Assembly (NCBI GenBank): GCA_002395065.1
Contig: DGVS01000007.1
Location: forward strand, 67,981 to 131,980
Length of the DNA: 64,000 bases
Origin: Bacillales bacterium UBA4278
GTDB taxonomy: Bacteria; Bacillota_I; Bacilli_A; RFN20; CAG-826
Reading direction: 5' to 3'
The notes under the pieces were generated by a model. It did no database searches, was not told the origin of the DNA, and saw nothing but the letters and a program-made list of their open reading frames with translations. Shown here one piece after another: positions 5,750 through 61,851 of this stretch; the first letter of the stretch is position 1, and the number at the start of each line of letters is the position of its first letter. Made by a program: the position numbers and the translations under genes.

Positions 5750-5751
5750 TT

Positions 5752-8357: not shown

Positions 8358-8386
8358 GTTAACCGAGAATTGCTGGTTAATTTTTT
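8358..8386 (+). terminator. Terminator hairpin GTTAACC-loop-GGTTAAC + T-run; carries the dispersed 19-mer TTAACCGAGAATTGCTGGT
   Basis: Perfect 7-bp inverted repeat followed by TTTTTTG. Confidence 0.65.
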
Positions 8387-8416
8387 GTAAAAGTACCGCA
8401 AAACCCCAATATTTCT

Positions 8417-9481
8417 ATGAATAAAAAATCACGGTCAATTCTAGTAATTTCTCTAACATCGGTTGTTAGTTTAGCACTTGGTGTTTTTGGTTATATTTAT
8501 TTCTCTTTCCTCCATCATTACAAAGGTAAAACTGTTGTATGTGAATGGAATGAAACAGACACTTTTGACATTAACTCATTACCAACTGTTGAAGTGAAAA
8601 AAGGGCAAGATTTCAAGATCTTAAACTTTGCTGATATTCAACTTAGTGACACGGAAAATATGTTCAATATGAACCGCATCCACAAGGAAATGTCATACTT
8701 AGTTAAACAAACGAAACCAGATTTAATCACTTTAACCGGTGATCAAACATGGTTTAATGAAAACCGCACTTCGTTGCTTAGTGTCATCAACTGGTTGGAT
8801 AGCTTTAAAATTCCATACGCTCCAATTTTTGGAAACCATGATTTTGGAAATCCAGGTCATACAGCGGTGGCGACACCAAATTACTGCTGTGAGAAGTATG
8901 AGGATGGAAAATACTCTTTATTTAGAAGAGGCCCAACCAACATCGATTCATTAGGTAACTATGTTGTGCGTGTCGTTAAGGATAACCGAACATTTTCCTT
9001 ACTTTACATGGTTGACTCCGGGGTAAATGATCGAATCAACGATAAACAAATCTCCTATTTCAATTGGATTGCTCAAGGTGTTAAAGAACATGATGGAGAT
9101 TTCCCAAAGAAAAGCTATGCTTTCATGCATAAACCTCTTCCAGAATACATTGATGCTTATAAAGCCCATGAAAAAGGCTATCCATACACTGAAACACGTG
9201 GAGAAATGTATAACTATTATTACTTGGGAGGCAGTGAACAAAATGGATTCTTTAGCTTTGCTAAGTCAATTGGAATATCCGATATCGTTGCTGGACATCA
9301 ACATGGAAATTGTTTCTCTATTCGCTACCAAAATGTTTGGTTAACTTCCGCACTTAAAACCGGGGAATTTGGTGGATTTATTGATAAAGATGGTGTCTAT
9401 TTAAATGGAGCATCCTTATTTACATATAATGGCTTTGAATCTTCTTTAAAAAATATTTTCGTTACGAAAGGAAAATTCTAG
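8417..9481 (+). CDS. Membrane-anchored metallophosphoesterase (calcineurin-like)
   Basis: N-terminal TM; GDQ, GNHD, GHQH metallophosphatase motifs. Confidence 0.7.
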   Translation: MNKKSRSILVISLTSVVSLALGVFGYIYFSFLHHYKGKTVVCEWNETDTFDINSLPTVEVKKGQDFKILNFADIQLSDTENMFNMNRIHKEMSYLVKQTKPDLITLTGDQTWFNENRTSLLSVINWLDSFKIPYAPIFGNHDFGNPGHTAVATPNYCCEKYEDGKYSLFRRGPTNIDSLGNYVVRVVKDNRTFSLLYMVDSGVNDRINDKQISYFNWIAQGVKEHDGDFPKKSYAFMHKPLPEYIDAYKAHEKGYPYTETRGEMYNYYYLGGSEQNGFFSFAKSIGISDIVAGHQHGNCFSIRYQNVWLTSALKTGEFGGFIDKDGVYLNGASLFTYNGFESSLKNIFVTKGKF

Positions 9482-9537
9482 TTCAAGAAATATTTATTGA
9501 GATTGATAGATTTAATATCTATAATATTTTTCGCACC

Positions 9538-9611
9538 GGGGGTGTCGTACAATGGTAGTACAACGGTCTCCAAAACCGCTAATAAGGGTTCGATTCCTTT
9601 CACCCCCGCCC
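9538..9611 (+). tRNA. tRNA-Trp (anticodon CCA)
   Basis: 7-bp acceptor GGGGGTG/CACCCCC, D-stem GTAC/GTAC, anticodon loop CTCCAAA, T-loop TTCGATT. Confidence 0.85.
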
Positions 9612-10792: not shown

Positions 10793-11479
10793 ATGAAAAA
10801 GAATCTAAAAATCTCTCTCATTTTAAATAGTGTTATTGTTTTCTTATTCTTATTTGGAATGATTACTTCCTTATTAAATTGGCAGTGGATGGGCATTAAT
10901 GGAAACCTTACACCTCAAACTGATAATTTCCTCTGGTTCTTTACAGTTGATAGCAACATCTTTTTAACTGTTGCTGCATTAATTCTAGTTATCTTTGATG
11001 TACTTATTCTTTTAAATAAAAGAAAAGATATTCCTCATTGGGTTTATGTGGTGAAATATGTCGCGACATGCACAACAACATTAACACTAATGACTGTCAT
11101 TTTATATCTAAGTCCATTACTCGGCTTAGATTTCTGGAAGTTATTCTTAAATAACAACCTATTCTTCCATCTTGTCTCTCCGGTGATCGGAATCGTTTCA
11201 TTAATCTTTTTTGAAGCAAAAGAAGAGATGAACTGGAAGGTATCATTCCTGTCTTTAGTTCCAATGGGTTTATATTCCATCTTCTATATCACTAATGTGT
11301 ACACCCATCTAAATAACGGACAAGTTGATCCAAAATATGACTTCTACTATTTCGCTTCAAAAGGAATCTTTATGACATGTGTGATGATTATTGTGATGCT
11401 AGCAATAACTTATGGTTCAGCAATTGGTCTATATTACCTACGCGAAATTAGAAGAAAGAAACCTTCTCAAAATAAGTAA
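10793..11479 (+). CDS. Integral membrane protein, function unknown
   Basis: RBS AGGAA before ATG at 10793; six or more TM helices. Confidence 0.5.
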   Translation: MKKNLKISLILNSVIVFLFLFGMITSLLNWQWMGINGNLTPQTDNFLWFFTVDSNIFLTVAALILVIFDVLILLNKRKDIPHWVYVVKYVATCTTTLTLMTVILYLSPLLGLDFWKLFLNNNLFFHLVSPVIGIVSLIFFEAKEEMNWKVSFLSLVPMGLYSIFYITNVYTHLNNGQVDPKYDFYYFASKGIFMTCVMIIVMLAITYGSAIGLYYLREIRRKKPSQNK

Positions 11480-11502
11480 AATCCCCAGCAATTTACGAAA
11501 AA

Positions 11503-11527
11503 GAACCAGCAATTCCTGGTTCTTTTC
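11503..11527. terminator. Bidirectional terminator GAACCAG-CAATTC-CTGGTTC between convergent genes
   Basis: Perfect 7-bp inverted repeat flanked by A-run and T-run. Confidence 0.65.
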
Positions 11528-11540
11528 GTTTATTCAAATC

Positions 11541-14733: not shown

Positions 14734-14756
14734 ATAAATCCTTTCCAAAATAAAAA

Positions 14757-14790
14757 TTCACCCGTAAATTGCTGGTGAATTTTTATTTTT
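14757..14790 (+). terminator. Terminator TTCACC-loop-GGTGAA + T-run (loop CGTAAATTGCT)
   Basis: Inverted repeat followed by TTTTTATTTTT. Confidence 0.6.
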
Positions 14791-15444: not shown

Positions 15445-15564
15445 AAAAAAATATTTTAATTTTCTCTTACGAGCGCACGCTATTTTTCTTATAATGTATT
15501 TTCAATTACTAAAAGTTGTTTCTTGGTGATTGATAAAAGAGAAAAAATTTCCGGGTCTCTCACT

Positions 15565-18500
15565 ATGAAAACAAAACTCTCCCTCGTATTAGCCTCATTA
15601 GCGATGGCTTTTTCTGTTGGCGCAGGTGCTGCTTCCACAAATAAAAAAGTCGAGCAAGCGGAGGCTGCTACATATTCACAAACAGTTGACCAATATTATT
15701 CAACGTCTCAACAATCCGGGGATGCAGCTATTGATTGGAATCAAACTGGAGCAACATTAAAAACTTCTCTTTTTAAAAAAATTAAGATTACAACTGCTGG
15801 TTGGTCCTACGATGGTCTTTGGGAAGCATACAAAAAAACAGACGTTCGTCCTGATGGAACACATTTCTGGGATATCTATTCTGATTCCACAGATTACACA
15901 TTAAATGATAATAGAATTAATGCTTCTTATAAGAAAGAAGGCGATTCAATTAACCGTGAACACGTGATTCCTCAGTCCACATTTAATGAAGCTGCTCCAA
16001 TGAAGAGTGACATTCATCATGTTTTACCATCCGATGGTTACGTGAATAACCGTCGTTCAGCTTATCCGCACGGTATTGTTACTGGTTCACCAACTTACAC
16101 ATCAAACGATGGATGTAAATTAGGTTCGGGAACTGGTAGTACAACAGTTTTTGAACCAATGGATAACTACAAAGGCGATATTGCTCGTATCTATTTTTAC
16201 TTTGTAACTTGTTATCAAGACAAAATGTCGAGCAATTCTTTTAGTGCCTTCGATAAATCAACTCACCCATCAATTAAAACGGCTTATTTAAATGTCTACT
16301 TGCAATGGGCAAAGGATGACCCTGTTTCCCAAAAAGAAATTGATCGAAATAATGCCGCGTATGCTGGACAAGGTAATAGAAACCCATTCATTGATTGTCC
16401 ATATGCTGTTGGTGCGATTTGGGATTCAACCCATGCAACTGATTACGGTAACAAAGGCGAATATACATCAGGGACTGGTGTATCAATTAGCAAAACCTCT
16501 GCATCCATGATTAGTGGTGGAACAACAACCATTAGCGCCACATCAACAGAAGGCGGAACAATTAATTGGACAACATCCAATAGCAGCGTTGTTTCTTTAA
16601 GTTCATCCACATCATCTAGTGGAAACAGTATTACTTTAACTGCTGGATCAGCTGGTTCAGCAACAATCACTGCAAGTCAAACAATCAGTGGAACAACATA
16701 TTCAAAGACTTGTTCTGTTACTGTTTCAGCAACAAAACAAGTTACCTCAATTGCAATTAGTGGACAGAAAACGTCTTATGCAGTCGATGATACATTTGTT
16801 AAACCAACTGTAACTGCGACATATAATGACGGAACGCAAGCTACAGTTACTTCTGATGCAACATGCTCTGGCTACAATATGTCGATCGCTGGAAATTACA
16901 CAGTAACTGTTTCTTATAGTTATGGTGGAGCAACCAAAACTACAACATATGAAATTACCGTTTCTTCCTCTGGCGGAGGTTCAGGGGGTATTGATGATTA
17001 TACAATCTCAACAACTCCATTAACTTCTAGCGGAATCACAAACAATATGCTTGTTGTTTGGGGTACATCAACTTCTAATCTTGCAAGTAGTATTGGAAGT
17101 AACTGGGTGTATCTTTCTGCGGTTGGCGATGACACAATGATTTTTGTTGTCGAGGGAACATCAAGCGGCTTTAAATTAAAATATACCTCAGATAATACAT
17201 ATGTCGCATCATCTGGAGCAAAGAAAGTTGAATTAAATAGCACTGGAACCACATTTACTTTAAATAGCAATAAATGTGTTTATAATTCCACGTCTGGAGC
17301 TTTTGTTTATAACACAAGTGGTTTGCGACCATATGCTTCTGGTTCATATACTAATGCATATTTATATGCATTAACACCAAATAAAACTCTTTCTGAAATT
17401 GACGTTTACACATTCCCAACCAAAGTGTCGTACACCATTGGTGAATATTTTGACCCAACCGGACTAGTAATTACTAGAACATACTCTGATTCGTCATCCG
17501 ATACCTATTCTTATGCTGGACATACATCAGAGTTTACTTTTGATCCTTCAACTTCCACGCCTCTTGCGAGTGGAATGGAAACTGTAGAAGTTACATATGG
17601 TGGTCAATCTTGCTCCTTTGAAATTGAATTGACTGCCGCAAAAGAATTGTCATCTATTTCTATATCCGGATATACAACTGCTTTTGTAGAAGGTGATACA
17701 TTTGCCTTTGGCGGCACAGTTACTGCTCATTACGCTGATGCTTCAACAGAAAACGTTACAAGTACAGCTACATTTAGCGGTTATGATATGACAACAGTTG
17801 GCAATCAAACTGTTGCTGTCACTTATCAAGGCGAATCTGCAACATATCAAATTGCAGTTTCTGCAGGAACATTAAACTCGATTACTGTTAGCGGTCAGAC
17901 AACTACATATACAAAAAATGCTGCATTCTCCTTTGATGGAATATGTACAGCAACATTCGCGAATGGCTATCAAAAGGAAGTCACCCCAACCAGTGTTACT
18001 TCTCCCGATATGACAACAGCCGGAAACAAAACAATCATAGTTTCCTATACATATAACGGAAACACGAGAACAACCTCCTATGATATTTCTGTTAATTCAT
18101 ATCGAACAGTTATGGAAGAAAGCTATTCTCTTATTGGCACAATAAGCTATACTTCTGGTTCTGAAGTAGTTTCCGTTAATACCCTTTCAACAAGTAAGAG
18201 CGGATATACGAATATCGAGAATGGTCCTGACACCAGCAATAAAGCGATACGATTGGGCTCTGGAAGTAATAAAGGCACACTAACTATTACCTCAACCACA
18301 TCAAACATTCGCAAAATTGTTGTAAATGCTCGTACCTACAACACTGACTCACCAGTTAATATGACAATTGGTGGTACATCAAATTCTTTAACAACGAGCT
18401 ATGCTGATTACACAAAGGAATATACAACTGCAACTAATTCATGTGCCATTGCAACAACCACAAATGGAAAACGCGCATGGATTAAATCTGTTACAGTTTA

Positions 18501-18915
18501 TACATATTCATCTCAAGATATTGGGCAAACCGAAGATTGTGTTGGCTTAGAAACATTCATTAACACTTATATGCACATGGATTACACTGAAAACCTCGGC
18601 TATTGCAGTGATAGTGAACATCATTATTATTCAACCGCTAAAGAGGCGTTCAATGGATTGAATTCACATCAACGTTCATTATTTACTGGTAACTCCGCCT
18701 ATACTACTGAATGGACTAGATTATCTACTTGGGCTTCTAAAAACGGAGATTCATTAAATAACAGTAATCAATTAGCTGCTGGAGCAAATCCAAACCCAGT
18801 TTCAATCATCGTTGGAAATAGTGGTAATATCGTTGCAATTATCACTGTGGTTGCATTGATCTCAGCTGCTTCAATTGGTGGATACTTCTTTCTAAAGAAG
18901 CGTAAAGAATTCTAA
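15565..18915 (+). CDS. Surface-anchored extracellular nuclease: signal peptide, endonuclease-I family domain, multiple Big_2 (Ig-like) domains, C-terminal TM anchor
   Basis: Endonuclease_1 motifs EHVIPQS, DIHHVLPSDGYVNNRRS, NRNPFID; repeated about 80-aa Ig-like modules; C-terminal IVAIITVVALISAASIGGYFFLKKRK. Start at ATG 15565 assumed. Confidence 0.75.
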   Translation: MKTKLSLVLASLAMAFSVGAGAASTNKKVEQAEAATYSQTVDQYYSTSQQSGDAAIDWNQTGATLKTSLFKKIKITTAGWSYDGLWEAYKKTDVRPDGTHFWDIYSDSTDYTLNDNRINASYKKEGDSINREHVIPQSTFNEAAPMKSDIHHVLPSDGYVNNRRSAYPHGIVTGSPTYTSNDGCKLGSGTGSTTVFEPMDNYKGDIARIYFYFVTCYQDKMSSNSFSAFDKSTHPSIKTAYLNVYLQWAKDDPVSQKEIDRNNAAYAGQGNRNPFIDCPYAVGAIWDSTHATDYGNKGEYTSGTGVSISKTSASMISGGTTTISATSTEGGTINWTTSNSSVVSLSSSTSSSGNSITLTAGSAGSATITASQTISGTTYSKTCSVTVSATKQVTSIAISGQKTSYAVDDTFVKPTVTATYNDGTQATVTSDATCSGYNMSIAGNYTVTVSYSYGGATKTTTYEITVSSSGGGSGGIDDYTISTTPLTSSGITNNMLVVWGTSTSNLASSIGSNWVYLSAVGDDTMIFVVEGTSSGFKLKYTSDNTYVASSGAKKVELNSTGTTFTLNSNKCVYNSTSGAFVYNTSGLRPYASGSYTNAYLYALTPNKTLSEIDVYTFPTKVSYTIGEYFDPTGLVITRTYSDSSSDTYSYAGHTSEFTFDPSTSTPLASGMETVEVTYGGQSCSFEIELTAAKELSSISISGYTTAFVEGDTFAFGGTVTAHYADASTENVTSTATFSGYDMTTVGNQTVAVTYQGESATYQIAVSAGTLNSITVSGQTTTYTKNAAFSFDGICTATFANGYQKEVTPTSVTSPDMTTAGNKTIIVSYTYNGNTRTTSYDISVNSYRTVMEESYSLIGTISYTSGSEVVSVNTLSTSKSGYTNIENGPDTSNKAIRLGSGSNKGTLTITSTTSNIRKIVVNARTYNTDSPVNMTIGGTSNSLTTSYADYTKEYTTATNSCAIATTTNGKRAWIKSVTVYTYSSQDIGQTEDCVGLETFINTYMHMDYTENLGYCSDSEHHYYSTAKEAFNGLNSHQRSLFTGNSAYTTEWTRLSTWASKNGDSLNNSNQLAAGANPNPVSIIVGNSGNIVAIITVVALISAASIGGYFFLKKRKEF

Positions 18916-18932: not shown

Positions 18933-18965
18933 AAAAAATCTCGTTAAAAATGGCGAGATTTTTTG
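18933..18965 (+). terminator. Terminator AAAAAATCTCG-loop-CGAGATTTTTTG
   Basis: Hairpin + T-run; near-identical copy at 19646-19680. Confidence 0.65.
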
Positions 18966-19050: not shown

Positions 19051-19332
19051 ATGAGTATGATACAAGCATTACCAAAGGTATTACCAGTAAATGAACTGAA
19101 GAATACCGCCAATATTATGAAGGTATGCCAAGAAACTGAAGGCCCTATTGTTATCACTAAAAATGGTTATGGAGCGGCTGTTATGATGAGCATTAAAGTT
19201 TATGAAGAAATGTTTGTTAAAATGAGAGCCGCAGCATTAATTAATGAAAGCCTTGATGATATTGACAATGGTGGTGAATTAATTGATGGCGAAAAATTCT
19301 TTAGTGAAATAAAAAGAAAACATGGAAGATAA
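19051..19332 (+). CDS. Type II antitoxin, Phd/YefM family
   Basis: 93 aa; VITKNGYGAAVMMSIKVYEEM core typical of Phd/YefM; overlaps the downstream toxin ORF. Confidence 0.8.
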   Translation: MSMIQALPKVLPVNELKNTANIMKVCQETEGPIVITKNGYGAAVMMSIKVYEEMFVKMRAAALINESLDDIDNGGELIDGEKFFSEIKRKHGR

Positions 19333-19632
19333 ATATTCATTTGTTATTTCACAACGTGCTAGAACTGATTTGGAAAACATTTATCAGTACATTTCAGAAG
19401 TTTTGTTAAACCCGAAAGCAGCAGATGATTTAATGGATCATTTTTCAAATCTTTTAAAAACATTTGCTCTTTCCCATATAGTTGTGAAGCAATTAACAAT
19501 GAATTTGTCAAAGATCATTCCATAAGAAAATTGTTGGTTAATAACTACATTGCTTTTTACCGAGTTAAAGATAAGCAAATTCAAATAGTTCGAATTCTAT
19601 TTGGCATGAGTGATTATCAAAAATTATTATAA
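19322..19632 (+). pseudogene. ParE/RelE-family toxin, frameshifted (T3 run at about 19469-19471; a T4 run would restore ...LLKTFALFPYSCEAINNEF...IAFYRVKDKQIQIVRILFGMSDYQKLL)
   Basis: ORF track stops at 19525, but the -1 frame continues with the conserved ParE C-terminus to the TAA at 19630-19632. Confidence 0.7.
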
Positions 19633-19645
19633 ATTGCTGGTTAAT

Positions 19646-19680
19646 TAAAAAATCTCGTCAATTCGGCGAGATTTTTTGTA
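19646..19680 (+). terminator. Terminator AAAAAATCTCG-loop-CGAGATTTTTTG (second copy)
   Basis: Same stem as 18933-18965 with a different loop. Confidence 0.65.
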
Positions 19681-19704
19681 TTTAACCAAGAATTGCTGGA
19701 TATT

Positions 19705-20565
19705 TTAAATCTTTAGATCAACAGTTTCAGAGATGTAATAGTGATAATTATATTCATCACAATACTCTTGGATTTCTTTCTTTAAAGTGTTGTTTTTTGT
19801 GTACTCAATAAAGAGAACATCTCCATAATATCTCATGAATTTAACAACACTAATGAGATACTCTTTTTCTTTTGCTATTTGTCTAGAGAAGACATTGTTT
19901 TCATAATCATCAATCTTGGAGAAGATACATTCTTGAGCATACGCTTTAATCTTTGATAATTCAGGACGATTTTCGTCTTTCATTCTTTCAAGAAAATCAG
20001 TTCCTGAATTAATCATGAGTTTCATTCCAGTGGAACTAAGATCATTTAGCATCTTCAAACAACCTTGATAGATGTCTTCTTTATTAATGTCGCTTCCTTG
20101 ATAGACTTCGGACACAATATAGTAAACATCAAAGTTATCCATAAAGATTCCATCTGCACCAAGATCTTTAAGTCTATTAGCTTCGCTTAGGATATGTTCT
20201 TGCCAGAAAGAGTTAGATACATCAACCCACCTTTCATCTGGCCAGTTTTCATAATCCATAAATGTTAAATCTTTATACGTTTCATAATATGAACGATATT
20301 TCTCTAGTGATCCAACCGATAAATAAGCATAAATAAAGCAATCACTTTGTTTAAGTGTAGAAATAGCGTTCGTATTAAAGCTATCTAAATCAATCGCGAC
20401 ATTTGGATAGTTCTTAATTTTATTAACACTACTTGAATCACATCCAAGAAAAACTCCATATTTTAGTGGAGCGGTGTATTCCCCTTTGGATGTTTTCTTT
20501 TTTGAAGAATTACATCCAGATAAAGAAAGCGCTAATAACGGAATTAAAAACAGAAGTTTTTTCAT
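19705..20565 (-). CDS. Lipoprotein, GH114-like (TM1410/PelA-hydrolase-like TIM-barrel) putative glycoside hydrolase
   Basis: Lipobox LSLSGC; YAYLSVGSLEKYRSYY, WVDVSNSFWQEHIL, LGADGIFMDNFDVY resemble GH114 conserved blocks (recalled, not searched). Confidence 0.5.
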   Translation of the reverse strand: MKKLLFLIPLLALSLSGCNSSKKKTSKGEYTAPLKYGVFLGCDSSSVNKIKNYPNVAIDLDSFNTNAISTLKQSDCFIYAYLSVGSLEKYRSYYETYKDLTFMDYENWPDERWVDVSNSFWQEHILSEANRLKDLGADGIFMDNFDVYYIVSEVYQGSDINKEDIYQGCLKMLNDLSSTGMKLMINSGTDFLERMKDENRPELSKIKAYAQECIFSKIDDYENNVFSRQIAKEKEYLISVVKFMRYYGDVLFIEYTKNNTLKKEIQEYCDEYNYHYYISETVDLKI

Positions 20566-23577: not shown

Positions 23578-26500
23578 ATGAAAAACCTATTCAAAACAAG
23601 AAGAACAAAAATCTATCTTGGCATTATTGCAAGTGCTGTCTTTGCAGTAACAATTGCTTTATTTGCCAATTTCAAACCATCTTTATTTAGAAATGCATCC
23701 GCTGCCAATGATTACACAATTACATTTAATCGTAATAACGGTGGTGCCGGTTTCCCTTCTTCATATGGTAGTGGCACAAATAGTAGTGGTCATACAAGCA
23801 GAGGCAATCAAATCTCTTTCACATATAACAATGCAAAATCAACCTCCGGCAAGTTCTGTACTTTAGCTAATGGAGGTTATTTATATAACTTAACAGCCAT
23901 TACTGGATTAGAATCAGTGGAGATCGGATTTAGTGGTGGTTCACTTTCTTTATATTCCAGTAAATCTACGACATTTGATGGTGATGCTGAGTCATTAACT
24001 ACTGAATCAGCTTTATCAATCGCTGCCAACTATGACTATTTTAAGCTAGTTGCTAGCGGTGAAACTGCTATTGAATACATTAAAGTTTTCTATACTTGTT
24101 CTGCTCGTGAAGAACAATCATATTATGTGAAGGTTAATGAAACCTCACAAGTAACAAGTGGCCAATATTTGATTGTCTATGAGAGCGGAAGTGTTGCTTT
24201 AAATCTTCAAACTGAAGAAGATGTGGCAAATAACGGTACATCGGTTACTATTGTCGAAGACAAGATCGAGTCTACATCGGCAACAGATGTTTTAGCATTT
24301 ACTTTAGATGATACTAATGGATCTCTATTGGCTCCTTGTGGAAAATACATTACTCACACTGGATCTAAAAATACATTGAATTTCTCTGATTCTGCTGTTG
24401 GACACGATATTTCCGTTGAAGACGGTGTCGCAAACATTGAAGTTACATCTCAAAGTTATCATATTGCTTATAACAACAATACTGATCAAAAGCGATTTAG
24501 ATATTACCTGAATTCTGCTGCTAATGTCGCGTTATTTAAATTGAATGGTGAATCCGGCGGAGGCACTGTAGTAACAAACTATACCATTACCTATATGAGC
24601 AATGGTGGTACTGGAACAATGGAACCTACAAGTGGCACCAATCCAGTTGTTGCTTCATGTTCATTCACTGCACCATCTGGTCAAGAATTCTCTAAATGGA
24701 ATACAGCTGCAAATGGCAGCGGAACCGATGTCGCTGTTGGCACAGCCTTAAGTGCTGATACTACCTTATATGCTATTTGGGAGGCTTCTTCCTCTGGAGG
24801 TAGTTCAACATTCGAACTTTTCTCTGGAACAATTGAAGAAGGCGATTACATTATTACCTATGATGACTGTGCAATGAATACTACAGTAACATCGACACGT
24901 TTACAATATTATTCTGTCACACCTGTCAATGACGTGATTACTGACCCAAGTGATGATATTATCTGGCACATTGCCAAAAGCGGTAATTACTGGACTCTTT
25001 ATAACGAAGAAGTTGAAGCTTATGTTGCTTCAACTGGTGCAAAAAACAAAGCACAAATGCTTGAAGATGGTACAGATGATAAATCTTTATGGTCAATTAC
25101 TGGTTCTGAAACTTATGAGTTTGTTAATAAACAAAACGCAAGCAGTGGTGTTAATGCAAATTTAAGAAAAAATGGAACATACGGATTTGCATGTTATTCT
25201 TCGAGTACAGGTGGCGAATTAACTCTGTACAAATCTGTAGAAGCCACTCCACAAGGACCAATCTCGGTGAGCGGTGTTTCACTTAACCATGTTTCGGCAG
25301 AGATTACCAATGAAACTGGAATTCAACTTTCTGCCACAATTTCTCCAAACAATGCTACGAACCAAAATGTATCTTGGTCATCAGATAAACCCGGTATCGC
25401 TTCTGTTGATCAGTCTGGAAATGTTACAGGTGTTTCTGCTGGCACAGCCATTATTACTGTAACAACCGAAGATGGCAATAAGACCGCCACTTGTGAAGTG
25501 ACGGTTACGATGATTGTTCACGTTACAGGCGTGTCTTTAGATCATACATCTTTAGATTTGCATCCAGGTGAACAAGACAGTTTAACAGCAACCGTTTCGC
25601 CGTCAAATGCAAGCAATAAGAATGTTACGTGGTCGACAAATGCATCTAGTGTTGCAACCGTTAATAACGGAACTGTTACTGCAGTTTCCGCTGGTACGGC
25701 AACAATTACCATCACAACTGTTGATGGAAGCAAAACGGCTCAGTGCACCGTGACTGTAACAAATATCGCCGTTACTGGTATTTCATTAAATAAAAATTCA
25801 TTAACACTTGATCGTCCAGGATCAGAGACATTAACTGCAACAATTGCCCCTTCAAATGCATCGAATAAAAATGTTAATTGGAGCTCCGGAAATACAAATG
25901 TTGCTACAGTCAGTGGTGGCACAGTTACTGCTGTTGGCACAGGTACAACAATCATTACCGCAACATCTGCTGCTGACAATACAAAATATGCAACTTGTAC
26001 TGTTACAGTTAACCCTGTGAATGTTTCAAGCGTTTCATTGAATAAAAATGCTTTAAGTTTAGGTGTTGGCGCCAAAGAAACATTAACAGCAACTGTGTCT
26101 CCTTCAAATGCAGATAATACCAATATTAATTGGTCGACAAGTGATTCTGGTGTAGCTACCGTTACTAACGGAGAGGTTACAGGTGTTGCAGCTGGTACCG
26201 CAACTATTACCGCTACATCAGCAGCTGATAGCTCCAAGAAAGCCACATGTACTGTTACCGTCACAAGTCAAAGTCCTGTTTCATCCTATACAATAGAATT
26301 TAAGGTTGGAACTGGTGACGGAAGTACGTTGTCAGATACTACCGAAAACTCGACTTACATCGAATCTGGTTCGGAATACGTCAATAGTATTTCTTATGCT
26401 AATAAGGTGTATGGCCCCGGATCTTATGGATTAAAACTCGGTGCTTCTAGTAGTGCTGGTTCACTTACGCTTTCTATTGATAGCACAGAAGTTTCAACAA

Positions 26501-29474: not shown

Positions 29475-29541
29475 GAGTTCGATTATTTCGAATTCTTTTT
29501 GCTGATAATAACGTATTCTTTTCTTCGACCAACTCCTTTCG

Positions 29542-29890
29542 CTAAATAACCTTTTTTAATCGTTCACACTCAACTTCCTTTTTGGCTAATTCAAGTCTTA
29601 ATCTTTCAACTTCTGTGAGATTCTTTTTAACATACAACGCTGAATATGGGTTACCAGATCCACATTTACCTGTTTTAGATTTTAAGCCATCAATACCATC
29701 TTTTTCATATGCGCGAACCCATTTGCCAATGGTCGTATCGCTAATACCAAGTTCGTCACCTATTTTTTTTAAAAGGGATATTCTCGTTAATACATCTAAG
29801 AACAATTTGTTCTTTTTCAATAGGAGATCGCATATTGTTTTTTGTTCCTCTTGGGCGACCTCTGATTGCTCTGTCTTTCTTTTTAGACAT
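29542..29890 (-). pseudogene. IS3-family transposase OrfA (HTH + leucine zipper), frameshifted in an A8 homopolymer (top-strand T8 at 29763-29770)
   Basis: N-terminus MSKKKDRAIRGRPRGTKNNMRSPIEKEQIVLRCINENIPFKK in one frame, continues IGDELGISDTTIGKWVRAYEKDGIDGLKSKTG... in the next; GGAGG RBS before ATG 29890. Confidence 0.65.
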
Positions 29891-30008
29891 AATTGCCTCC
29901 TTTTCATAATCATACTAAAAGAAAAAGTAGACCGCATTTTTTATACGTGTCTACTTTTATCTTATCGGAGCACCGATCGGCCTCGCCTTTTAGTTTGGTT
30001 ATTATTTC

Positions 30009-40552: not shown

Positions 40553-40648
40553 TGTGCTCACAAATGTGCCTATGCACAATTTTTATTATTGCATACTCGC
40601 ACAGTGGTATATATAATATACGCAATTACTATTATCGTGTACTCGCAC
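40553..40648 (+). promoter_or_regulatory. Promoter region of S8 protease gene: dyad TGTGC-N4-GCACA (40565-40578), TTGCAT-17-TGgTATATATAAT promoter, and direct repeat ATACTCGCAC (40593-40602 / 40639-40648) bracketing the -10
   Basis: Seen directly. Confidence 0.4.
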
Positions 40649-40663
40649 GAAGGAGGTAATGTT

Positions 40664-44809: not shown

Positions 44810-47800
44810 ATGAAAAAAACTCACATTATATCATTTGCTTTTGCTGCCCTAATGAGTGTTGCAGCTCTTTCAGGCTGTTCGAAAAATGGAAGTGATATTC
44901 CACTTGAGTTCGACTTCTCCATTGGTATTGAAGGTGATTATTCCGCGTTAGAGATCTCTGATCAAAAGTATCGCCTTGTTGTCTATGACAACGGTGTAGA
45001 TACCCAACGTCGTGAATACACTTACAAATCATCTAATGAAGCCTACGCAAGTGTCGTACCAACCACAGGTTTTATTACCACACACGCACCAGGACGAGTC
45101 CGATTTACGGTCACCGAAACTAGATCTGGTATTGAAGAATACAAGGTCATTAACGTTATCGAAGCTTCGGATAAAGCAACTGGTGGATATAACTATTCCG
45201 CAGCCGCAACAGAAGAGCAAATTGATGAACGTACAGAAATCCTTGGCAAACTAGAAAAGTATGCCATGGACACACATTTAACTGGTATTTCTCTATTTGA
45301 GAATGGCGGTTATGTCTGTTATAGCGATCGTTCCCATGATTTACTTGGTGATCGTCGTTATGTCACCGGCTTTGGTTATGGTCTACTTTCTGATAGTGAT
45401 CCATTTACTGAACCACTTTCTGGTAGTGCCGTTGATAAAGAATTTCCACTTTACTACCACACCGCAAGTAGTTCTGACCCATTAACAATTAATGCGTTAG
45501 ATGCTTCTGGTAGCCAAGTTAGTGATCTATCTGGCTACATTACTTCAAGTTACTTCTCCACGAAGTTAAACAATGAAGGCACAAACGCGATTTGGTATCC
45601 GCTTTTAGCGGATCGTAACGCACACGTTACTGATCCAGAAACCGATAACCCAATGATGTTCCATCTTGGACCAAAGAACGGTTCTGGAATGTATACTGGC
45701 TGGAGAATCTATGTCCGTACCGACTTAGCTTATAAGTATAATGGTACCTTAGCTAACCCAGATCCAGCTTACCAATCATTTAACAACTACCCAGTGAAAT
45801 TAGCTGACTACGAATTCGCCCTTCGTTTCCTTTTAACAGGTTCACATAACCTCAAACGTGGTAACGAAATGGCCGCGGATACTTCGTATGGTATTAAAGG
45901 CGCCAATAGCTACAACGCTTTGACTAAGTCATCGACCAGTGACGCCTTTAATGAAACAACCTGGGAAAACATGAAGAAGAGCCATAAGCTCGGTATTCGT
46001 ACTGGTGAAGTCACTGCTGATAAACCAGAGGTTTATGAAGGTGAAGGAAGAAACTATCCAGTTGGTAAATACATTGAGTTTGAATTAATCAACCCAATTG
46101 ACTCATTTACCGCGATGTATACTCTTTCCTCTTCGCTTTATTCACCTCTTCCAAAGGAATTCATCCAGAAGATTGGCGCCCGTGCTGATGGTGAAATTGA
46201 TGATGAATCGATCAAACGTGCTTCCAAACGTTATGGAACATTCAACAATAACGATACTGTTCCTTCACAAATGAAGAACAACATTGTTGAATCAACCATC
46301 TGTTTAGGTGCTTACTACTTAAATAAATGGGATAAGGAAACACGTATTGTGTTTACCCATAACACTGATTGGTTCGAATACAAAGAAGGACGTTACCAAA
46401 TCGAAGGTGTTCGTATGCGTATCAACACCTCGATTAACGAAAACCCAGACGCCTACTATAACGACTTTATTAATGGTAACCTCGACTCCTGTTCTCTCCC
46501 ACAAAAACACTTAAAGGAGAAGAGTAACGTTGAATTACATTGTCGTAAGGTGCCAGGTGACTCGGTCTTTAAACTAAATGTTAACTCTTGTACAAGAGAA
46601 CAATGGGACGAAAGATTCGGCCCAAGTGGAAAGATTTCTGCTGGACACTCCTGGGATGTTAAACCTTGGATGTCGAACGATGCGTTCTTAAATGGTTTAT
46701 TCTGGTCGATTGACCGTAAATCATTCGCTGAAAAACGTGGTGTTGAACCATCGATTAACTATTTTTCTGATAGTTACATGTCTTATCCACAAAAGAATAT
46801 TTCTTATAACTCCACCCAAGCGCATAAAGATGCGGTGAAGTCATACCATAACGTGATCAACAAAGGTGGAGAACAAATTGATGACTACGGCTATAACAAA
46901 GATAAAGCCGTAACATATTTTAAAACCGCTGTTTCACAACTTGTGAAACAAGGCAAACTGAACTACGGTACTAGTGAAAATCCAACCGTGATCAAGATTG
47001 AAATCTGGTGGATGTATCAATCAGATATTACTGATTATGGTACCGATATTAAGGGTTATTTTGAAACAGCATTCAATGATCCAAGTGTCTCGCATGGACG
47101 TATTAAATTAAATGTTGTTAATAACGCTGTTACCGTGTGGGAATACGTTTATGACCAACACCTCCAAGTCGGTGAATTTGACCTCGGCTTTGGTGCGATT
47201 AGTGGTAACACATATAACCCATTAAACTTCTTAGAAGTTTTAAAATCAGATAACTCTTCAACATTCACTTTGAACTGGGGTGCTGATACTTCCAAGATCG
47301 ATGACCGTTATCCTCTTGTATATAAGGATAATAAATATTCATTTGATGCTCTTTGGGAAGTTGCTGACCATGGTGGTGTTGTGAAAGACGGTGTTAACGT
47401 CAAACCTGTTGAAGAATGTTATCTTTCAACATTCTCCACTCTTTCTAGCGGCTCAGCTAAGACTGATACTAGCGTAGAACTTGAATACAAGTTCGTTGAA
47501 GACGTTGGTGAGTCTGTCAAGTTTGCGATGGAATCCGTGTCTCTTTACGTTATTGGCGGCCAAATCTTCGGAGAAGATGATGGTGTTTCATACGATAAAG
47601 ACGCACACATGATTACATTAACTTACGATGCCCAGAAAGCCATTGAAGAAAGCATCCAGAAAGCAAATAAATGGGATGCCGCAACATACACGGGAGATGA
47701 AAAGTACAAAGATCACTTGACCCGTGAATGTTATAAGAAATACTGGCTCTTTGACGTCACGTATTCGATTAAGATTGGCGAAGGACAAGAAACACTTAAC

Positions 47801-47848
47801 TCTGTTACCGCCGGTCGTACATCAAGTGATGATCCATATGGATATTAA
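44810..47848 (+). CDS. Very large lipoprotein, putative oligopeptide ABC transporter substrate-binding protein (OppA-like, family 5)
   Basis: Lipobox ALSGC; positioned as first gene of an oppBCDF operon; family assignment by context rather than recognised motif. Confidence 0.55.
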   Translation: MKKTHIISFAFAALMSVAALSGCSKNGSDIPLEFDFSIGIEGDYSALEISDQKYRLVVYDNGVDTQRREYTYKSSNEAYASVVPTTGFITTHAPGRVRFTVTETRSGIEEYKVINVIEASDKATGGYNYSAAATEEQIDERTEILGKLEKYAMDTHLTGISLFENGGYVCYSDRSHDLLGDRRYVTGFGYGLLSDSDPFTEPLSGSAVDKEFPLYYHTASSSDPLTINALDASGSQVSDLSGYITSSYFSTKLNNEGTNAIWYPLLADRNAHVTDPETDNPMMFHLGPKNGSGMYTGWRIYVRTDLAYKYNGTLANPDPAYQSFNNYPVKLADYEFALRFLLTGSHNLKRGNEMAADTSYGIKGANSYNALTKSSTSDAFNETTWENMKKSHKLGIRTGEVTADKPEVYEGEGRNYPVGKYIEFELINPIDSFTAMYTLSSSLYSPLPKEFIQKIGARADGEIDDESIKRASKRYGTFNNNDTVPSQMKNNIVESTICLGAYYLNKWDKETRIVFTHNTDWFEYKEGRYQIEGVRMRINTSINENPDAYYNDFINGNLDSCSLPQKHLKEKSNVELHCRKVPGDSVFKLNVNSCTREQWDERFGPSGKISAGHSWDVKPWMSNDAFLNGLFWSIDRKSFAEKRGVEPSINYFSDSYMSYPQKNISYNSTQAHKDAVKSYHNVINKGGEQIDDYGYNKDKAVTYFKTAVSQLVKQGKLNYGTSENPTVIKIEIWWMYQSDITDYGTDIKGYFETAFNDPSVSHGRIKLNVVNNAVTVWEYVYDQHLQVGEFDLGFGAISGNTYNPLNFLEVLKSDNSSTFTLNWGADTSKIDDRYPLVYKDNKYSFDALWEVADHGGVVKDGVNVKPVEECYLSTFSTLSSGSAKTDTSVELEYKFVEDVGESVKFAMESVSLYVIGGQIFGEDDGVSYDKDAHMITLTYDAQKAIEESIQKANKWDAATYTGDEKYKDHLTRECYKKYWLFDVTYSIKIGEGQETLNSVTAGRTSSDDPYGY

Positions 47849-56585: not shown

Positions 56586-57698
56586 TCAACTCATTAACTT
56601 TTGGCCACAAATAAAAGCCCAGGTTAAGTTATAACCGCCACACGGACCATGCATATCCAAGACTTCTCCAACAAAGTGAACGTTTGGTTCAGATTTGCTT
56701 TCAAAGTTTGGTTTGACTTGATCGATACTAATGCCACCAATCGTAATTTGACTATTTTCAAAATCATAAAAATCTTTAAAAGTGAACTTGAAATTTTGTA
56801 GATCTTTAATGTAGTTTTTATCACTAATTCGTGAAGAAAAATATTCGACTAATTTTGGAGAAAAATAATTCTCTAAAAATTCTGTTTTAACCGAGAATTG
56901 CTGGTAATTTTCCTTTAAATCTCCATTAAAATCTGGAAGAACATTTAAAACTATTTCGTAATTATATGTTGGGTTTTTGATATGGTTTGATGCGTTGAAA
57001 ATAACGATGCCAGAAAGGCCATCTTTCTTAAATAAAACCTCACCGTCTTCATTGAAAACTTTTATACCGTTTTCTAATAAAGTAACGTTTGCTTTAACAC
57101 GCAAACCATCAACAAGTTTTGTGTTCTCCTTTGTTTCAATTGGAACAAGTCCAGGATGAAGCGGAACGATGGTGTAGTGGTGTTTCTTTAAAATTTCATA
57201 AATCGATCCATCATTACCAAGTCCTTTTGTTGATTTACCACCTGTAGCAATAATAAGTTTGTCAGAATCATAAGTATCTCTATTAGTTTTAACTCTGACA
57301 CCGTTTTTAATAACTTCGTAATCAACGAAGTCTTCCTCAAGATGAATCTTTACACCTAGTTTGTCGGCTTCTTTTAACATTTGGTTACGAACCGTTTGTG
57401 CAGATTCACTGTATGGATAAATTAGATCCCCAATCGCTTTTGTTTTAAATCCATATGATTCGACATACTTAATATATTCTTTAAAAGAATATAAACCCAT
57501 CAATTCTGGATGATTATATTTGGAGATATCTAATTTTTGATTTCCTAAGTTACAACGTCCATTACCAGTTGCTAAAATCTTACGAAGTGCTTTATCACTG
57601 TGTTCAATGATGATGACATCGTCTTTTGGATACTTTCTTTTAATATTGATTGCCGAAGCAACACCTGATGCTCCAGCTCCGATAATGATGCATTTCAT
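56586..57698 (-). CDS. HI0933/YhiN-like FAD-dependent flavoprotein (aminoacetone-oxidase family)
   Basis: Start reassigned to ATG 57698 (listed longer ORF would overlap tRNA-Arg); IIIGAGASGVASAI dinucleotide-binding motif, GNGRCNL motif. Confidence 0.75.
   Translation of the reverse strand: MKCIIIGAGASGVASAINIKRKYPKDDVIIIEHSDKALRKILATGNGRCNLGNQKLDISKYNHPELMGLYSFKEYIKYVESYGFKTKAIGDLIYPYSESAQTVRNQMLKEADKLGVKIHLEEDFVDYEVIKNGVRVKTNRDTYDSDKLIIATGGKSTKGLGNDGSIYEILKKHHYTIVPLHPGLVPIETKENTKLVDGLRVKANVTLLENGIKVFNEDGEVLFKKDGLSGIVIFNASNHIKNPTYNYEIVLNVLPDFNGDLKENYQQFSVKTEFLENYFSPKLVEYFSSRISDKNYIKDLQNFKFTFKDFYDFENSQITIGGISIDQVKPNFESKSEPNVHFVGEVLDMHGPCGGYNLTWAFICGQKLMS
56887..56905 (+). repeat. Dispersed 19-mer TTAACCGAGAATTGCTGGT (intragenic copy)
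   Basis: Exact 19/19 match to 8358-8376 and to the reverse complement of 60434-60452. Confidence 0.8.
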
Positions 57699-59506: not shown

Positions 59507-59654
59507 TTTTGTACTTTGAGTTATATATCACTAACCTGCTAGTATTTTATCAAAACTAAAATTTCTTTCATATAAGAAAGAGAAATTAATTTTTTCTATT
59601 TCATTATTAGTCGATTTGTGAAATGATATTCATGGTTTTGTACAACAAAAGATT

Positions 59655-60296
59655 ATGAAATATCTCGTCATTGCATCAACATTATTCGTCATTGGATCCC
59701 TCTTTGGTTGGGTTATCGAACTCTTCTTTCGCAGATTTGTTTCCCAAAAGAAATGGATGAATCCTGGATTTCTTGTCGGTCCATATCTTCCAATTTATGG
59801 ATTCGGAGTTCTTTGTTTATATGCGGTGAGTAATATTTCGTTTGGAATTAGTGAACATTGGTTAGATGTTATCGTTCACATCTTTTTGATTGGAGTTTTA
59901 ATGACGGTGGTTGAATTTATCGCCGGTTTAATCTTCATCAAAGGCTTAAAAGTTAAATTATGGGACTACTCCAAACGAAAAGGAAACATCATGGGCATCA
60001 TTTGTCCATCATTCTCCTTAATTTGGTTAGTTGTTGGGTCCTTGTATTTCTTTTTCCTTAATCCATCGCTTGTAAAAGTTATTAGTTGGATTAGTGAAAA
60101 TTTAATCTATACATACTTTATTGGTGGAGTTATTGGAGCAATGATTGTTGACTTTGCTTACTCACTCCATTTGGGAATTAAAGTGAAACAGTTTGCTGAA
60201 CTTTCAGGCCAACGTTTTGACTCAATAAAAAAGGAACTTATAAAAAAACTGGCTTCACTAACCAAAAAGCCTCAAGAAAATACGGAGAAAAATTAA
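59655..60296 (+). CDS. Membrane protein, DUF1113/'putative ABC-transporter type IV (CmpB-like)' family, tentative
   Basis: GWVIELFFRRF...NPGFLVGPYLPIYGFG conserved N-terminal block. Confidence 0.45.
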   Translation: MKYLVIASTLFVIGSLFGWVIELFFRRFVSQKKWMNPGFLVGPYLPIYGFGVLCLYAVSNISFGISEHWLDVIVHIFLIGVLMTVVEFIAGLIFIKGLKVKLWDYSKRKGNIMGIICPSFSLIWLVVGSLYFFFLNPSLVKVISWISENLIYTYFIGGVIGAMIVDFAYSLHLGIKVKQFAELSGQRFDSIKKELIKKLASLTKKPQENTEKN

Positions 60297-60297
60297 G

Positions 60298-61851
60298 ATG
60301 AAAGTTGCTATAACTGGTGCTAGTGGACACATGGGTGAAGTTCTGTTTGAAACACTACTTAAAGAAGAGAATATTGAACTAATAAAAGTTCTTCGTTTCC
60401 ACAAGAAGGAAACTAATAAATTAATTAAAAAGAACCAGCAATTCTCGGTTAAAATCTCTGCAATTGACGGTTCAATCGCTGATGAAGAAGCGGTTAAAAA
60501 ACTTTGTGATGGAGTCGATTATGTTCTTAATTTAGGAGCATTAATTCCACCTCATTCAGACCACAATCCACAAGGTTCAATTGAAGCTAATGAGATTGGT
60601 CCAAAAGTGCTTTGCAAAGTTATTGAAGAAATGGGTGAAAATCAACCAAAATTAATTCACATTTCAACCGTTGGATTATTTGGTGATCGTGACCAAAATC
60701 ATCTTTTCGGAAGAGTCGGTGATCCGCTCCTAGTTTCACCATTTGATATTTATGCTTTAACAAAGATGCGCGGCGAATTTACTGTTCTTGAGAGTAATGT
60801 CAAAACATGGACAGTTTTACGCCAAACCGCCATGCTTTACGATAAGCTTCTAATGGCGAATATTTCTGATGGATTGATGTTCCATACTTGTTTTAATTCT
60901 CCACTAGAATGGGTAACAGCAAAAGATTCGGCAATCCTAATTCGCAATATTTTGCGTCGTGACCAAGCTGGAGAACTAAACGAAGATAACTTCTGGAAAC
61001 ACTGTTTTAATATTGGCGGCGGTCCAAAAGGAAGAGGTACAGGTAGTGAAACATTTGATTTAGGTTTCAAAATGATTGGTGCATCCACCAAACAATTTTT
61101 TGACCCAAATTACAATGCGACACGTAACTTCCATGGTGTCTTTTACAGTGACTCTAATCAACTTCAAGAACTCTTCCATTTCCAAGAAGACAGTCTTGCT
61201 GGTTTCTGGGATGATGTCTTAAAAAGACATAAGTATTTCAAGATGGGACGAATTGTTCCAAAGAAACTTCTCAAATTAATTATTATTAAACGTCTTTTAA
61301 GAAGCTCGAATGCTCCACGTTATTGGTACAAACACAAAGACGAAGCAAAAATGCTGGCCTATTTTAACGGAAGCAAAGCTTACGAAGCTATTCCAAAGAG
61401 ATGGGATGATGTTTATTTGCTCGCCGATGGCAAAGATAAACACGGAAACAAAATCGATTATGAGCAAATAAAAAACACACCAACTTACACACATCTTCCT
61501 TTTGATATCTCTAAACCTCGAAATGAATTAACCAAAAAAGATCTTGAAGCATACGCTCAATATCGCGGAGGTAAACTTCTTAGTAAAGATTTCTCCAAAG
61601 GAGATATCTATCAAAAACTCCATTGGTTAGATCATAATGGAGTGGAATTTATTGCTTCTGCTCACACAGTTCTTTACTGCGGACATTGGCACAATGTTTC
61701 ATATGATAAATATGCTTGGGATTTTGATAAACAAGCCAAATTAGACCAACTCTGTGCTGAAATTTGGTATGATGCCCATGAAAAAAATGAAGATCGTTAC
61801 TACTGGTACGATGAAAACTTCGTTGCCCACTATAAATCAATTCATGAATAA
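60298..61851 (+). CDS. NAD-dependent epimerase/dehydratase-family protein with about 200-aa C-terminal extension
   Basis: N-terminal MKVAITGASGHMGEVL Rossmann motif; contains the dispersed 19-mer in-frame (NQQFSVK). Confidence 0.6.
   Translation: MKVAITGASGHMGEVLFETLLKEENIELIKVLRFHKKETNKLIKKNQQFSVKISAIDGSIADEEAVKKLCDGVDYVLNLGALIPPHSDHNPQGSIEANEIGPKVLCKVIEEMGENQPKLIHISTVGLFGDRDQNHLFGRVGDPLLVSPFDIYALTKMRGEFTVLESNVKTWTVLRQTAMLYDKLLMANISDGLMFHTCFNSPLEWVTAKDSAILIRNILRRDQAGELNEDNFWKHCFNIGGGPKGRGTGSETFDLGFKMIGASTKQFFDPNYNATRNFHGVFYSDSNQLQELFHFQEDSLAGFWDDVLKRHKYFKMGRIVPKKLLKLIIIKRLLRSSNAPRYWYKHKDEAKMLAYFNGSKAYEAIPKRWDDVYLLADGKDKHGNKIDYEQIKNTPTYTHLPFDISKPRNELTKKDLEAYAQYRGGKLLSKDFSKGDIYQKLHWLDHNGVEFIASAHTVLYCGHWHNVSYDKYAWDFDKQAKLDQLCAEIWYDAHEKNEDRYYWYDENFVAHYKSIHE
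60434..60452 (-). repeat. Dispersed 19-mer TTAACCGAGAATTGCTGGT (intragenic copy, reverse orientation)
   Basis: ACCAGCAATTCTCGGTTAA on top strand. Confidence 0.8.

Follow-up and report, generated by a model that had tools for sequence, protein, structure and literature searches.

A clade-specific 25-bp DNA word in uncultured Bacilli, found in terminators and within genes, as a candidate uptake-type sequence

A 64,000-nt stretch of the genome of Bacillales bacterium UBA4278 (contig DGVS01000007.1, positions 67,981 to 131,980; hereafter the window) carries a short DNA word that recurs in terminator hairpins and within unrelated protein-coding genes, which raises the question of what holds the same letters in such different settings. 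An earlier note, made from the letters of the window, described it as a 19-nt motif reminiscent of DNA uptake sequences, of mobile repeats or of a protein-binding site. We find that the word is confined to one clade of uncultured Bacilli, known from metagenome-assembled genomes (MAGs), and related metagenome contigs, with dialects in sub-clades. The explanation that we consider best, held tentatively and with less than even confidence, is a DNA self-recognition word of the kind seen in the uptake signal sequences (USS) of Pasteurellaceae and the DNA uptake sequences (DUS) of Neisseriaceae, secondarily co-opted into terminators.

The 19-mer TTAACCGAGAATTGCTGGT occurs exactly at three sites, 8359–8377 and 56887–56905 on the plus strand and 60434–60452 on the minus strand, as had been reported except that the first copy had been placed one base too early (8358–8376). 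With two mismatches it is also found at 19682–19700 (plus), 33461–33479 (minus) and 36346–36364 (minus). The last two were among the near-copies listed earlier and stand as such; another, in the MalQ gene, is weak and agrees with the consensus derived below at only 17 of 25 positions. At three mismatches or fewer there are six matches in the window against 0.01 expected from dinucleotide shuffles, so the judgement that the recurrence exceeds chance was right. The core GAATTGCTGG, at up to one mismatch, has 15 sites where 4.2 are expected and no shuffle gave more than 10. The top over-represented 9-mer of the window, AATTGCTGG, has 13 copies, where an order-2 Markov model predicts 0.71; one of the 13, at 13262, lacks matching flanks and looks like a chance occurrence.

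The extent of the unit was defined by aligning 30 non-orthologous copies that had been retrieved by the 9-mer alone. Conservation spans about −11 to +16 around the core, and the CC at −5/−4 and the T-run at +13 to +16 are almost as constant as the core itself. Because conservation takes in both flanks and the T-run, the unit is an asymmetric word of about 25 bp, with the consensus wTwACC-r-AG-AATTGCTGG-T-n-A-TTTT, rather than the 19 nt first proposed. True copies separate cleanly from core-only matches without flanks, of which there are about 11 in roughly 0.5 Mb. That near-chance number favours an origin of the word in chance and codon usage, with common peptides (PAI, QQF, IAG) written in preferred codons, as do the MalQ site and the 'VPAIL' site of a PP-loop gene, which look coincidental. 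Full 19–25-nt matches, however, lie 600-fold above shuffles, and the copies include noncoding ones, fall in at least five frames and are restricted to a clade. We regard this origin as barely credible overall, and for full-length copies it is refuted.

The sequence flanking the word is different at every copy in the window, and therefore the copies did not arise by duplication; a segmental duplication, named earlier as one way in which the observation could be explained away, is excluded. Six copies lie on the plus strand and six on the minus strand, so the strand comparison that had been proposed gives no skew within the window, and copies 3.5 kb apart flip with their genes. The word has no match in Rfam, where only two tRNAs of the window reach the gathering score, and a known RNA family is thereby ruled out.

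The copies inside genes bear most directly on how the word arises. These copies lie on either strand and in several frames, come without insertions or deletions, and have hosts from at least 14 protein families that are unrelated to one another. The hosts include an HI0933-like flavoprotein, an epimerase-family protein, a Cof-type HAD hydrolase, MalQ, a PP-loop ATPase, LeuRS, an ABC/FtsX fusion, a GT2 glycosyltransferase, an FAD-binding dehydrogenase, a CYTH protein, a Ser/Thr kinase and Lgt. Its peptide reading changes with strand and frame and can be QQFS, TSNS, PAI(R/L)G, PRIAGDF or NRELLV. All four in-gene copies of the window are antisense to their hosts. Two contain the exact 19-mer and match the consensus at 24 of 25 positions, one in the flavoprotein gene (56887–56911, plus; QQFSVK) and one in the N-terminal Rossmann domain of the 517-aa epimerase-family protein (60428–60473, minus; KKNQQFSVK), where an upstream complementary arm, GAACCGTCAATT at 60462–60473, codes for IDGS. 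The Cof copy (36340–36364, minus; 21/25) is read as KIPAIRGY, has a partial inverted copy at 36383–36398 and is conserved in three relatives (loci L067, L068 and L069; compared loci are cited here by such labels). The MalQ copy (37671–37695, minus; 17/25) is read as YQQFPD; distant MalQ orthologues share only a conserved YQQ(F/I)P peptide at the site, and the copy is probably in part a coding coincidence. These peptide readings agree with those given earlier for QQFSVK, which is in the same frame in its two proteins, and for KIPAIRGY. A shared protein motif is ruled out by the unrelated host families and the several frames.

Alignments to homologues and solved structures show the four window host proteins to be colinear with motif-free homologues, with no insertion at the site; the Cof hydrolase, for example, has no indel relative to its homologue in L070. 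In an alignment of 21 epimerase homologues of equal length, those at 72% identity or more read KK(N/H)(Q/R)QF(S/L) and those at 63% or less read KKNKKY(K/L/S), and the S/L alternation matches a G/A position at which dialects of the word differ. The orthologue at 72% identity has 21 consecutive identical nucleotides over the motif, while third positions in the surrounding region are 60% identical. The PP-loop gene gives a similar picture across five species with 82–94% DNA identity: no other 27-nt window of the gene is as conserved as the one over the motif, where 26 of 27 positions and 9 of 9 third positions are invariant (0.50 of third positions gene-wide), and which sits in a stretch of about 65 nt in which three sites vary. 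In-gene copies thus arose by substitution and not by insertion, and the data support selection or drive that works on the DNA itself and not on a peptide common to the hosts, in line with what the earlier note had proposed from fewer copies.

A second short word, AAAACCYCAAT, lies 12–23 nt downstream of five independent motif copies (window 8400–8410; L003:6852–6862; L019:1571–1581; L020:7048–7058; L038:4739–4749). In the PP-loop gene it belongs to the stretch of about 65 nt that the five species have conserved. Possibly it represents an inverted partner of the word that has degenerated.

Miniature mobile elements, either miniature inverted-repeat transposable elements (MITEs) or similar to Rickettsia palindromic elements (RPE), could in principle spread such a word by inserting at TTAA-like targets, also in-frame. 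The consensus TTAA-CCGAGAATTGCTGG-TTAA does resemble a short insert with a duplicated TTAA, three identical copies lie within 64 kb, and RPE likewise occur inside unrelated protein genes. RPE, however, insert 30–50 residues, whereas protein alignments show no insertion here, with all four window hosts colinear with word-free homologues and the epimerase colinear across its 21 homologues. TTAA flanks are missing from most copies, and no copy of the motif is seen at the ends of either of two mobile elements, an IS605 TnpB element in L069 and an IS3-family element in the window. Insertion of a mobile element is contradicted for the in-gene copies, and as a general account it is very improbable; the suggestion of a REP- or MITE-like element (REP, repetitive extragenic palindrome) fails at the same point.

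How far does the word extend beyond the window? The exact 19-mer has 22 matches across 185,579 species genomes (one genome per species), and 17 of the 22 fall in six related 'Bacillales/Bacilli bacterium' MAG species with 2–4 each, namely UBA3207, UBA4365, RGIG3288 (goat reticulum) and three metaWRAP bins. The word is therefore not restricted to the window, a check that had been called for. The other five matches are scattered in unrelated high-GC MAGs, with about four expected by chance by our own estimate. Two such off-clade matches, L011:1144–1162 and L015:82–100, belong to one high-GC Acidobacteriota MAG and share a 21-nt upstream flank; they are copies of some repeat of that genome, unrelated to the Bacilli motif. 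A degenerate 21-mer retrieved 42 metagenome contigs, many of them from a relative of lower GC content (30–33%), and proteins of the window are encoded on metagenome contigs of 130–173 kb. The nearest named relative, by MalQ, is Candidatus Onthovivens (58% identity).

Density was estimated from syntenic loci retrieved by MalQ and TrkH homologues, not by the motif. These contain 17 cores per 94.8 kb, which extrapolates to about 180 cores per Mb, or about one per 5–6 kb; the fragments covered amount to roughly 0.6 Mb in all. The word is present in relatives down to about 66% protein identity (L067–L069, L072–L074) and absent (0 copies) from 42.8 kb of relatives at 58–60% identity (L070, L071). 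Viral contigs contain nothing that fits the strict pattern and gave only six chance-like matches to a looser one, and an origin in phages or plasmids is unsupported. Within its range the word differs among sub-clades, albeit judged from a small number of sites per dialect: CCGAG-AATTGCTGG-TT in the clade of the window, (A)TAACCAAG...GGTGATTTT in the low-GC group (the CCAAG form) and CCGYG-ATTTGCTGG in L069, L073 and L074.

The context of 66 distinct strict copies shows how the word is distributed relative to genes. One third are within genes (22 of 66), 15 antisense and seven sense. Ten lie between convergent genes, 20 between co-directional genes (ten in sense and ten in antisense orientation), four in divergent (promoter) regions and ten at contig edges. 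Intergenic copies pair with the sequence upstream of them, with a mean z of −2.7 against shuffled flanks and 25 of 38 below −2, and the motif's own T-run comes directly after the hairpin. In-gene copies have no hairpin potential beyond that of the consensus itself (mean z −0.6 and −0.1). About half of the window copies are in or beside terminators, and about four to five of some 20 strong terminators in the window contain the word. The combination expected of an intrinsic terminator, a stable hairpin with a T-run 3' of a gene, is found at four window hairpins and many related loci; in-gene and spacer copies lack it.

In the four window hairpins the word forms the loop. The hairpin at 1631–1662 (plus; 17/25), between convergent ABC-2 permease and SDR genes, has the stem AAAAAATCTCC/GGAGATTTTTT and, as its loop, the motif core GAATTGCT (core at 1643–1652). 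An exact 19-mer copy (8359–8383, plus; 24/25) lies in the short terminator after yqeY at 8357–8382, with the stem TTAACC/GGTTAA and the loop GAGAATTGCT followed by a T-run. Two tandem copies on the minus strand at 11478–11528, with cores at 11506–11515 and 11485–11494, lie between convergent genes, and the first of them is the loop of the hairpin 11496–11528 (AGAACC/GGTTCT). The terminator hairpin at 14747–14789 (plus; −17 kcal/mol), also between convergent genes, has the stem AAAATAAAAATTCACC/GGTGAATTTTTATTTT and the loop CGTAAATTGCT with the core variant AAATTGCTGG. The earlier placement of the core in terminator loops therefore holds at 1643 and 11508. The cores at 19632 and 19691, by contrast, flank a separate bidirectional terminator hairpin at 19648–19676, whose minus-strand reading, AAAAATCTCGCCGAATTGACGAGATTTTT, makes it a diverged relative of the 1631–1662 hairpin. 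Directly before it lies a partial copy, AAATTGCTGGTTAATTA (19623–19647, plus; 16/25; core at 19632), which overlaps the 3' end and former stop codon of a frameshifted parE. After it, the copy TTAACCAAGAATTGCTGGATATTTT (19682–19706, plus; 23/25) abuts the stop codon of the minus-strand gene 19705–20565.

Elsewhere the word takes other positions. It forms the whole 3' arm of hairpins of about 50 nt, AAAAATCACC(R)(K)CAAWTY...tCAAAGATAACCrA-GAATTGCTGGTGATTTTTT, at eight loci (L042, L043, L047, L049, L050, L055, L060 and L062), and these hairpins share both arms and the loop, with a recurrent T.C mismatch. L024 has a related hairpin with the stem AAAAAGAACC...GGTTCTTTTT, and in L027, L034 and L056 the word is the 5' arm. 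Hairpin-free copies fill short gene spacers in L018, L028, L035 and L052 and in the window at 33455–33479 (minus; 22/25), where the copy occupies the entire 21-nt spacer between the gpx stop and the CDF-transporter start codons, has no usable hairpin and is retained in L068. Copies in short spacers occur in both orientations, and some of them abut or supply a TAA stop codon. The claim that intergenic copies belong to rho-independent terminators thus stands, but the word does not always contribute the loop plus the 3' stem, and the TTAACC/GGTTAA stem is not the conserved feature and is mostly missing from in-gene copies.

Orthologous terminators persist between species while the core within them drifts. 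At the site orthologous to 1631–1662, L072 carries GAATTGCCGG; it keeps the tandem pair of 11478–11528 with a GAATCGCTGG substitution, has ATCC and GATTTGCTGG at the site of 19682–19706, and has a 1-nt insertion in the loop of the 14747–14789 terminator. In two cases the loop is inverted and the stem kept, in the yqeY terminator (window 8357–8382 versus L073:9855–9890) and in the terminator after an HTH gene (window 14747–14789 versus L074:8520–8560). As the stem is kept and the word inverted twice, the transcript orientation of the word is not what is preserved.

These observations bear on the idea that the hairpin is the functional unit. The copies would then be an intrinsic-terminator or REP-like family sharing sequence by common descent or through a loop-recognising factor, and those in genes would be weak antisense or cryptic terminators or by-products. 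Roughly two-thirds of copies are intergenic, mostly at gene 3' ends, and the upstream pairing followed by a T-run at 25 of 38 intergenic copies speaks for this idea. The same holds for the shared arms, loop and T.C mismatch of the hairpins of about 50 nt, for the compensatory stems around a constant core (TCTCC/GGAGA, TTAACC/GGTTAA, GAACC/GGTTC and TTCACC/GGTGAA) and for the antisense excess in genes, and the tandem copies at 11478–11528 resemble REP clusters. Against it, the word is variously loop, 3' arm, 5' arm or free of any hairpin; in-gene copies have no extra pairing yet retain the CC, core and T-run; orientation between co-directional genes is even, and four copies lie in divergent promoter regions. 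Seven sense copies with T-runs are found within real genes, and loops invert between species while stems stay, and therefore loop orientation is irrelevant to the RNA. An obligate role of in-gene copies as antisense terminators is rejected on the seven sense copies and the lack of extra hairpin potential.

The REP-like form of this idea meets further difficulties. REPs and the bacterial interspersed mosaic elements (BIMEs) are mobilised by RAYT transposases, and REPs are extragenic. As in REP/BIME and stem-loop repeats, the intergenic copies include imperfect palindromes of 30–50 nt at gene 3' ends, sometimes in tandem and with a recurrent mismatch (PMC2267715). They are also lineage-specific and able to act as terminators. 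Unlike in REPs, a third of the copies are in genes without indels, so that these in-gene copies are not insertions as transposed REPs would be, and the conserved part is not a palindrome; the strict definition as an extragenic palindrome does not apply, with 22 of 66 copies in genes and the palindrome missing there. No RAYT turned up in the DNA sampled, where L069 has only the IS605 TnpB element. On balance we judge it unlikely that the hairpin is the unit on which selection acts. Promoter readings (sigma-70, sigma-54 or extended −10) were rejected by inspection, as spacings misfit and the downstream sequence is unconserved.

If the unit is not RNA, it is presumably read as DNA. Its length, asymmetry, clade specificity and dialects, its indifference to strand, frame and structure, its origin by substitution and its retention at synonymous positions lead us to propose recognition as double-stranded DNA. 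The binding site of an abundant chromosomal protein unrelated to uptake, held by purifying selection, would fit all of this DNA-level evidence equally well, as the word is long, asymmetric, context-free, conserved in coding DNA, clade-bound and variable among sub-clades; candidates are a nucleoid organiser, a recombination hotspot, a repair or defence self-mark, or a transcriptional roadblock. Like Chi sites (RecBCD/AddAB), the word is over-represented in the chromosome at about one per 5 kb and is both genic and intergenic, and its core shares GCTGGT with E. coli Chi. Chi and the FtsK-orienting polar sequences (KOPS), however, are 5–8 nt and strand-skewed, Chi being co-oriented with replication, whereas the word is about 25 nt with no skew over 64 kb (6:6), and identity with Chi or KOPS is rejected on that lack of skew. 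Sites of the parS, Noc-binding (NBS), matS and Ter kinds do not fit either, being small in number and limited to certain regions. The word matches no transcription-factor consensus considered (cre, CodY), and its copies are in terminators (half) and genes (a third), not in promoter regions. Rapid drift of some copies among close species also sits poorly with a function exerted site by site. For these reasons a binding protein without a part in uptake seems to us about as unlikely as the hairpin unit.

USS and DUS are ranked first because no other well-understood class combines all of these properties. Pasteurellaceae USS (core AAGTGCGGT and an AT-rich flank) resemble the word in their short, highly uniform core with an adjacent A/T tract; they occur in both orientations, in coding and noncoding DNA, in several frames and with avoidance of stop-containing frames, and have copies arising by substitution and clade-specific variant types. 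The share of terminators carrying the word, about 20% here, is comparable as well: published shares are 17–29% in Pasteurellaceae and about 55% in Neisseria (PMC1852404), or up to 22% and 37%, respectively (PMC13020248), and terminators hold about half of all uptake sequences (bioRxiv 10.1101/2025.10.24.684340). Neisseriaceae DUS (GCCGTCTGAA plus dialects, with the receptor ComP) share with the word dialects that track phylogeny, the presence of half of the copies in terminators, a strong intergenic preference and absence from foreign or viral DNA. The earlier comparison with USS and DUS is thus upheld for lineage restriction, dialects and terminator shares; the function in uptake is putative, and the exact 19-mer is present only 2–4 times per genome.

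The differences are also clear. Unlike in USS, the host here is a Gram-positive-type member of the Bacilli without an outer membrane, the density is several-fold lower, intergenic enrichment is far stronger and the terminator partners are degenerate rather than true inverted pairs; the uptake role is putative. A DUS terminator stem consists of two good inverted copies, whereas the word here is often the loop, and only Tad-like filament genes were seen, with no ComP-like minor pilin identified. Uptake sequences go with competence machinery and a sequence-specific receptor, either ComP or the predicted ComN/PpdA.

How might a USS/DUS-kind word have come to be written into this genome? A DNA receptor of the transformation machinery would prefer fragments bearing the word, and uptake followed by homologous recombination would act as a molecular drive, by which new and improved copies would spread through point substitution wherever tolerated, including coding DNA. 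The terminal T-run of the word and the partial self-complementarity of its flanks (ACC...GGT) would explain why intrinsic terminators have repeatedly co-opted intergenic copies, be it as loop, as 3' arm or as 5' arm. DNA uptake as the selective agent is what we infer from these comparisons. An eight-gene cluster for a Tad-like type-IV filament lies on the same contig, 1.4–6 kb upstream of the window start (L081:3877–8490, where window position 1 is L081 position 9917). It encodes an MG284/MPN403-family small protein, two unknown proteins, a TadA/CpaF-type secretion ATPase, two polytopic membrane proteins, one of them with a weak match to UpsF (a pilus membrane protein), a protein weakly matching TadF and one of 63 aa whose N-terminus is pilin-like, MSEIKGQLLGIVLAIALFG... 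Transformation of Micrococcus luteus requires Tad-type pili; by analogy, the cluster is a candidate uptake filament, and it is possible that it carries the predicted word-specific receptor.

Several observations weigh against an uptake word. The word is sparse: about 180 cores per Mb is at the low end, several-fold below classical USS and DUS species, and the degenerate word, not the exact 19-mer, is the abundant form. Its spread is patchy: the first 20 kb of the window contain eight copies and the stretch 38–56 kb contains none, and of the sequence beyond the window the upstream 9.9 kb has a single variant copy, the downstream 9.8 kb no copy. By our own estimate copies are enriched about 20-fold between genes, and their hairpin partner arms are poor copies of the word. 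The in-gene antisense excess, though mild (15:7), implies some transcription-linked constraint, the simplest explanation being that sense copies are selected against where they still have some terminator activity. Terminator copies change quickly. L072, whose TrkH is 86% identical, has four orthologous terminator sites, and three of them differ, by the two core changes and the loop insertion described above, and in the 99%-identical phd/parE region three of 13 differences fall in two copies that make up 6% of the length. A simple prepilin-pattern search of the sampled loci found no ComG-type pilin-like open reading frame (ORF). The surveys consulted, published from 2007 to 2026, report uptake motifs only in Pasteurellaceae and Neisseriaceae. 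No report of the word itself was found in the literature searched, where the sequence string gave only unrelated primers. Finally, we know of no Gram-positive bacterium with uptake-sequence specificity.

Other features of the window were also noted. The parE gene (19333–19645), beside phd (19051–19332), has a 1-nt deletion relative to the 99%-identical L072:20939–21250 and no intact ORF, and looks like a toxin pseudogene. Three terminators of the window (1631–1662, 18935–18962 and 19648–19676) have a common stem, AAAATCTC(C/G)...(G/C)GAGATTTT, with different loops, which suggests that terminators of this genome are related or convergent beyond the motif itself. A very large nuclease gene (1130–1349 aa) is present at window 15523–18915 and at L072:16483–20532; the former weakly matches DNase I, Endonuclease_1 and Big_3 domains are found in the latter, and the enzyme could be relevant to extracellular DNA turnover.

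The IS3-family insertion sequence occupies window positions 28629–29937 and comprises an rve integrase ORF and a helix-turn-helix (HTH) ORF, with no motif in or beside it. It is followed by a PIN-domain ORF with a small upstream ORF, a possible toxin–antitoxin pair. The orthologous loci L068 and L069 lack the IS3 element. In L069, from a relative at 66% identity, the IS605-type TnpB (OrfB) gene lies at 4722–5921 between iron-dependent repressor and Big_2 genes, again with no motif at its ends. A run of very large surface-type proteins is encoded, in DNA of higher GC content (0.39–0.40), at 23578–28149, 40589–44794 and 44810–47848: a 1523-aa clostripain-like C11 peptidase with Big_2 and Flg_new repeats, a 1401-aa S8 peptidase and a 1012-aa SBP_bac_5 protein.

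Over the more than forty years since sequence-specific DNA uptake was recognised, it has to our knowledge stayed limited to two proteobacterial families, and terminator-embedded uptake words were again found only in those two when thousands of genomes were surveyed recently. As a dispersed repeat co-opted by terminators, the word belongs to a familiar phenomenon; as an uptake-type word in Bacillota, it is a candidate for a kind known only from those families. Even without uptake, a long DNA word that is written into coding sequence by substitution and held against synonymous drift needs explaining. In its boldest form, which we put forward as doubtful, the proposal is that this is the first uptake sequence outside Proteobacteria, that these reduced-genome gut and rumen Bacilli prefer their own DNA through a receptor specific for the 25-bp word, and that the word has been recruited to form about one-fifth of their terminators. 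If so, it would be a third independent case, in a Gram-positive-type lineage, and self-recognition in uptake would have evolved repeatedly; given the lack of an outer membrane and of ComP, a new type of receptor would be involved, and the word would be a sequence tag by which recombination could be traced and this poorly known rumen and gut clade binned in metagenomes.

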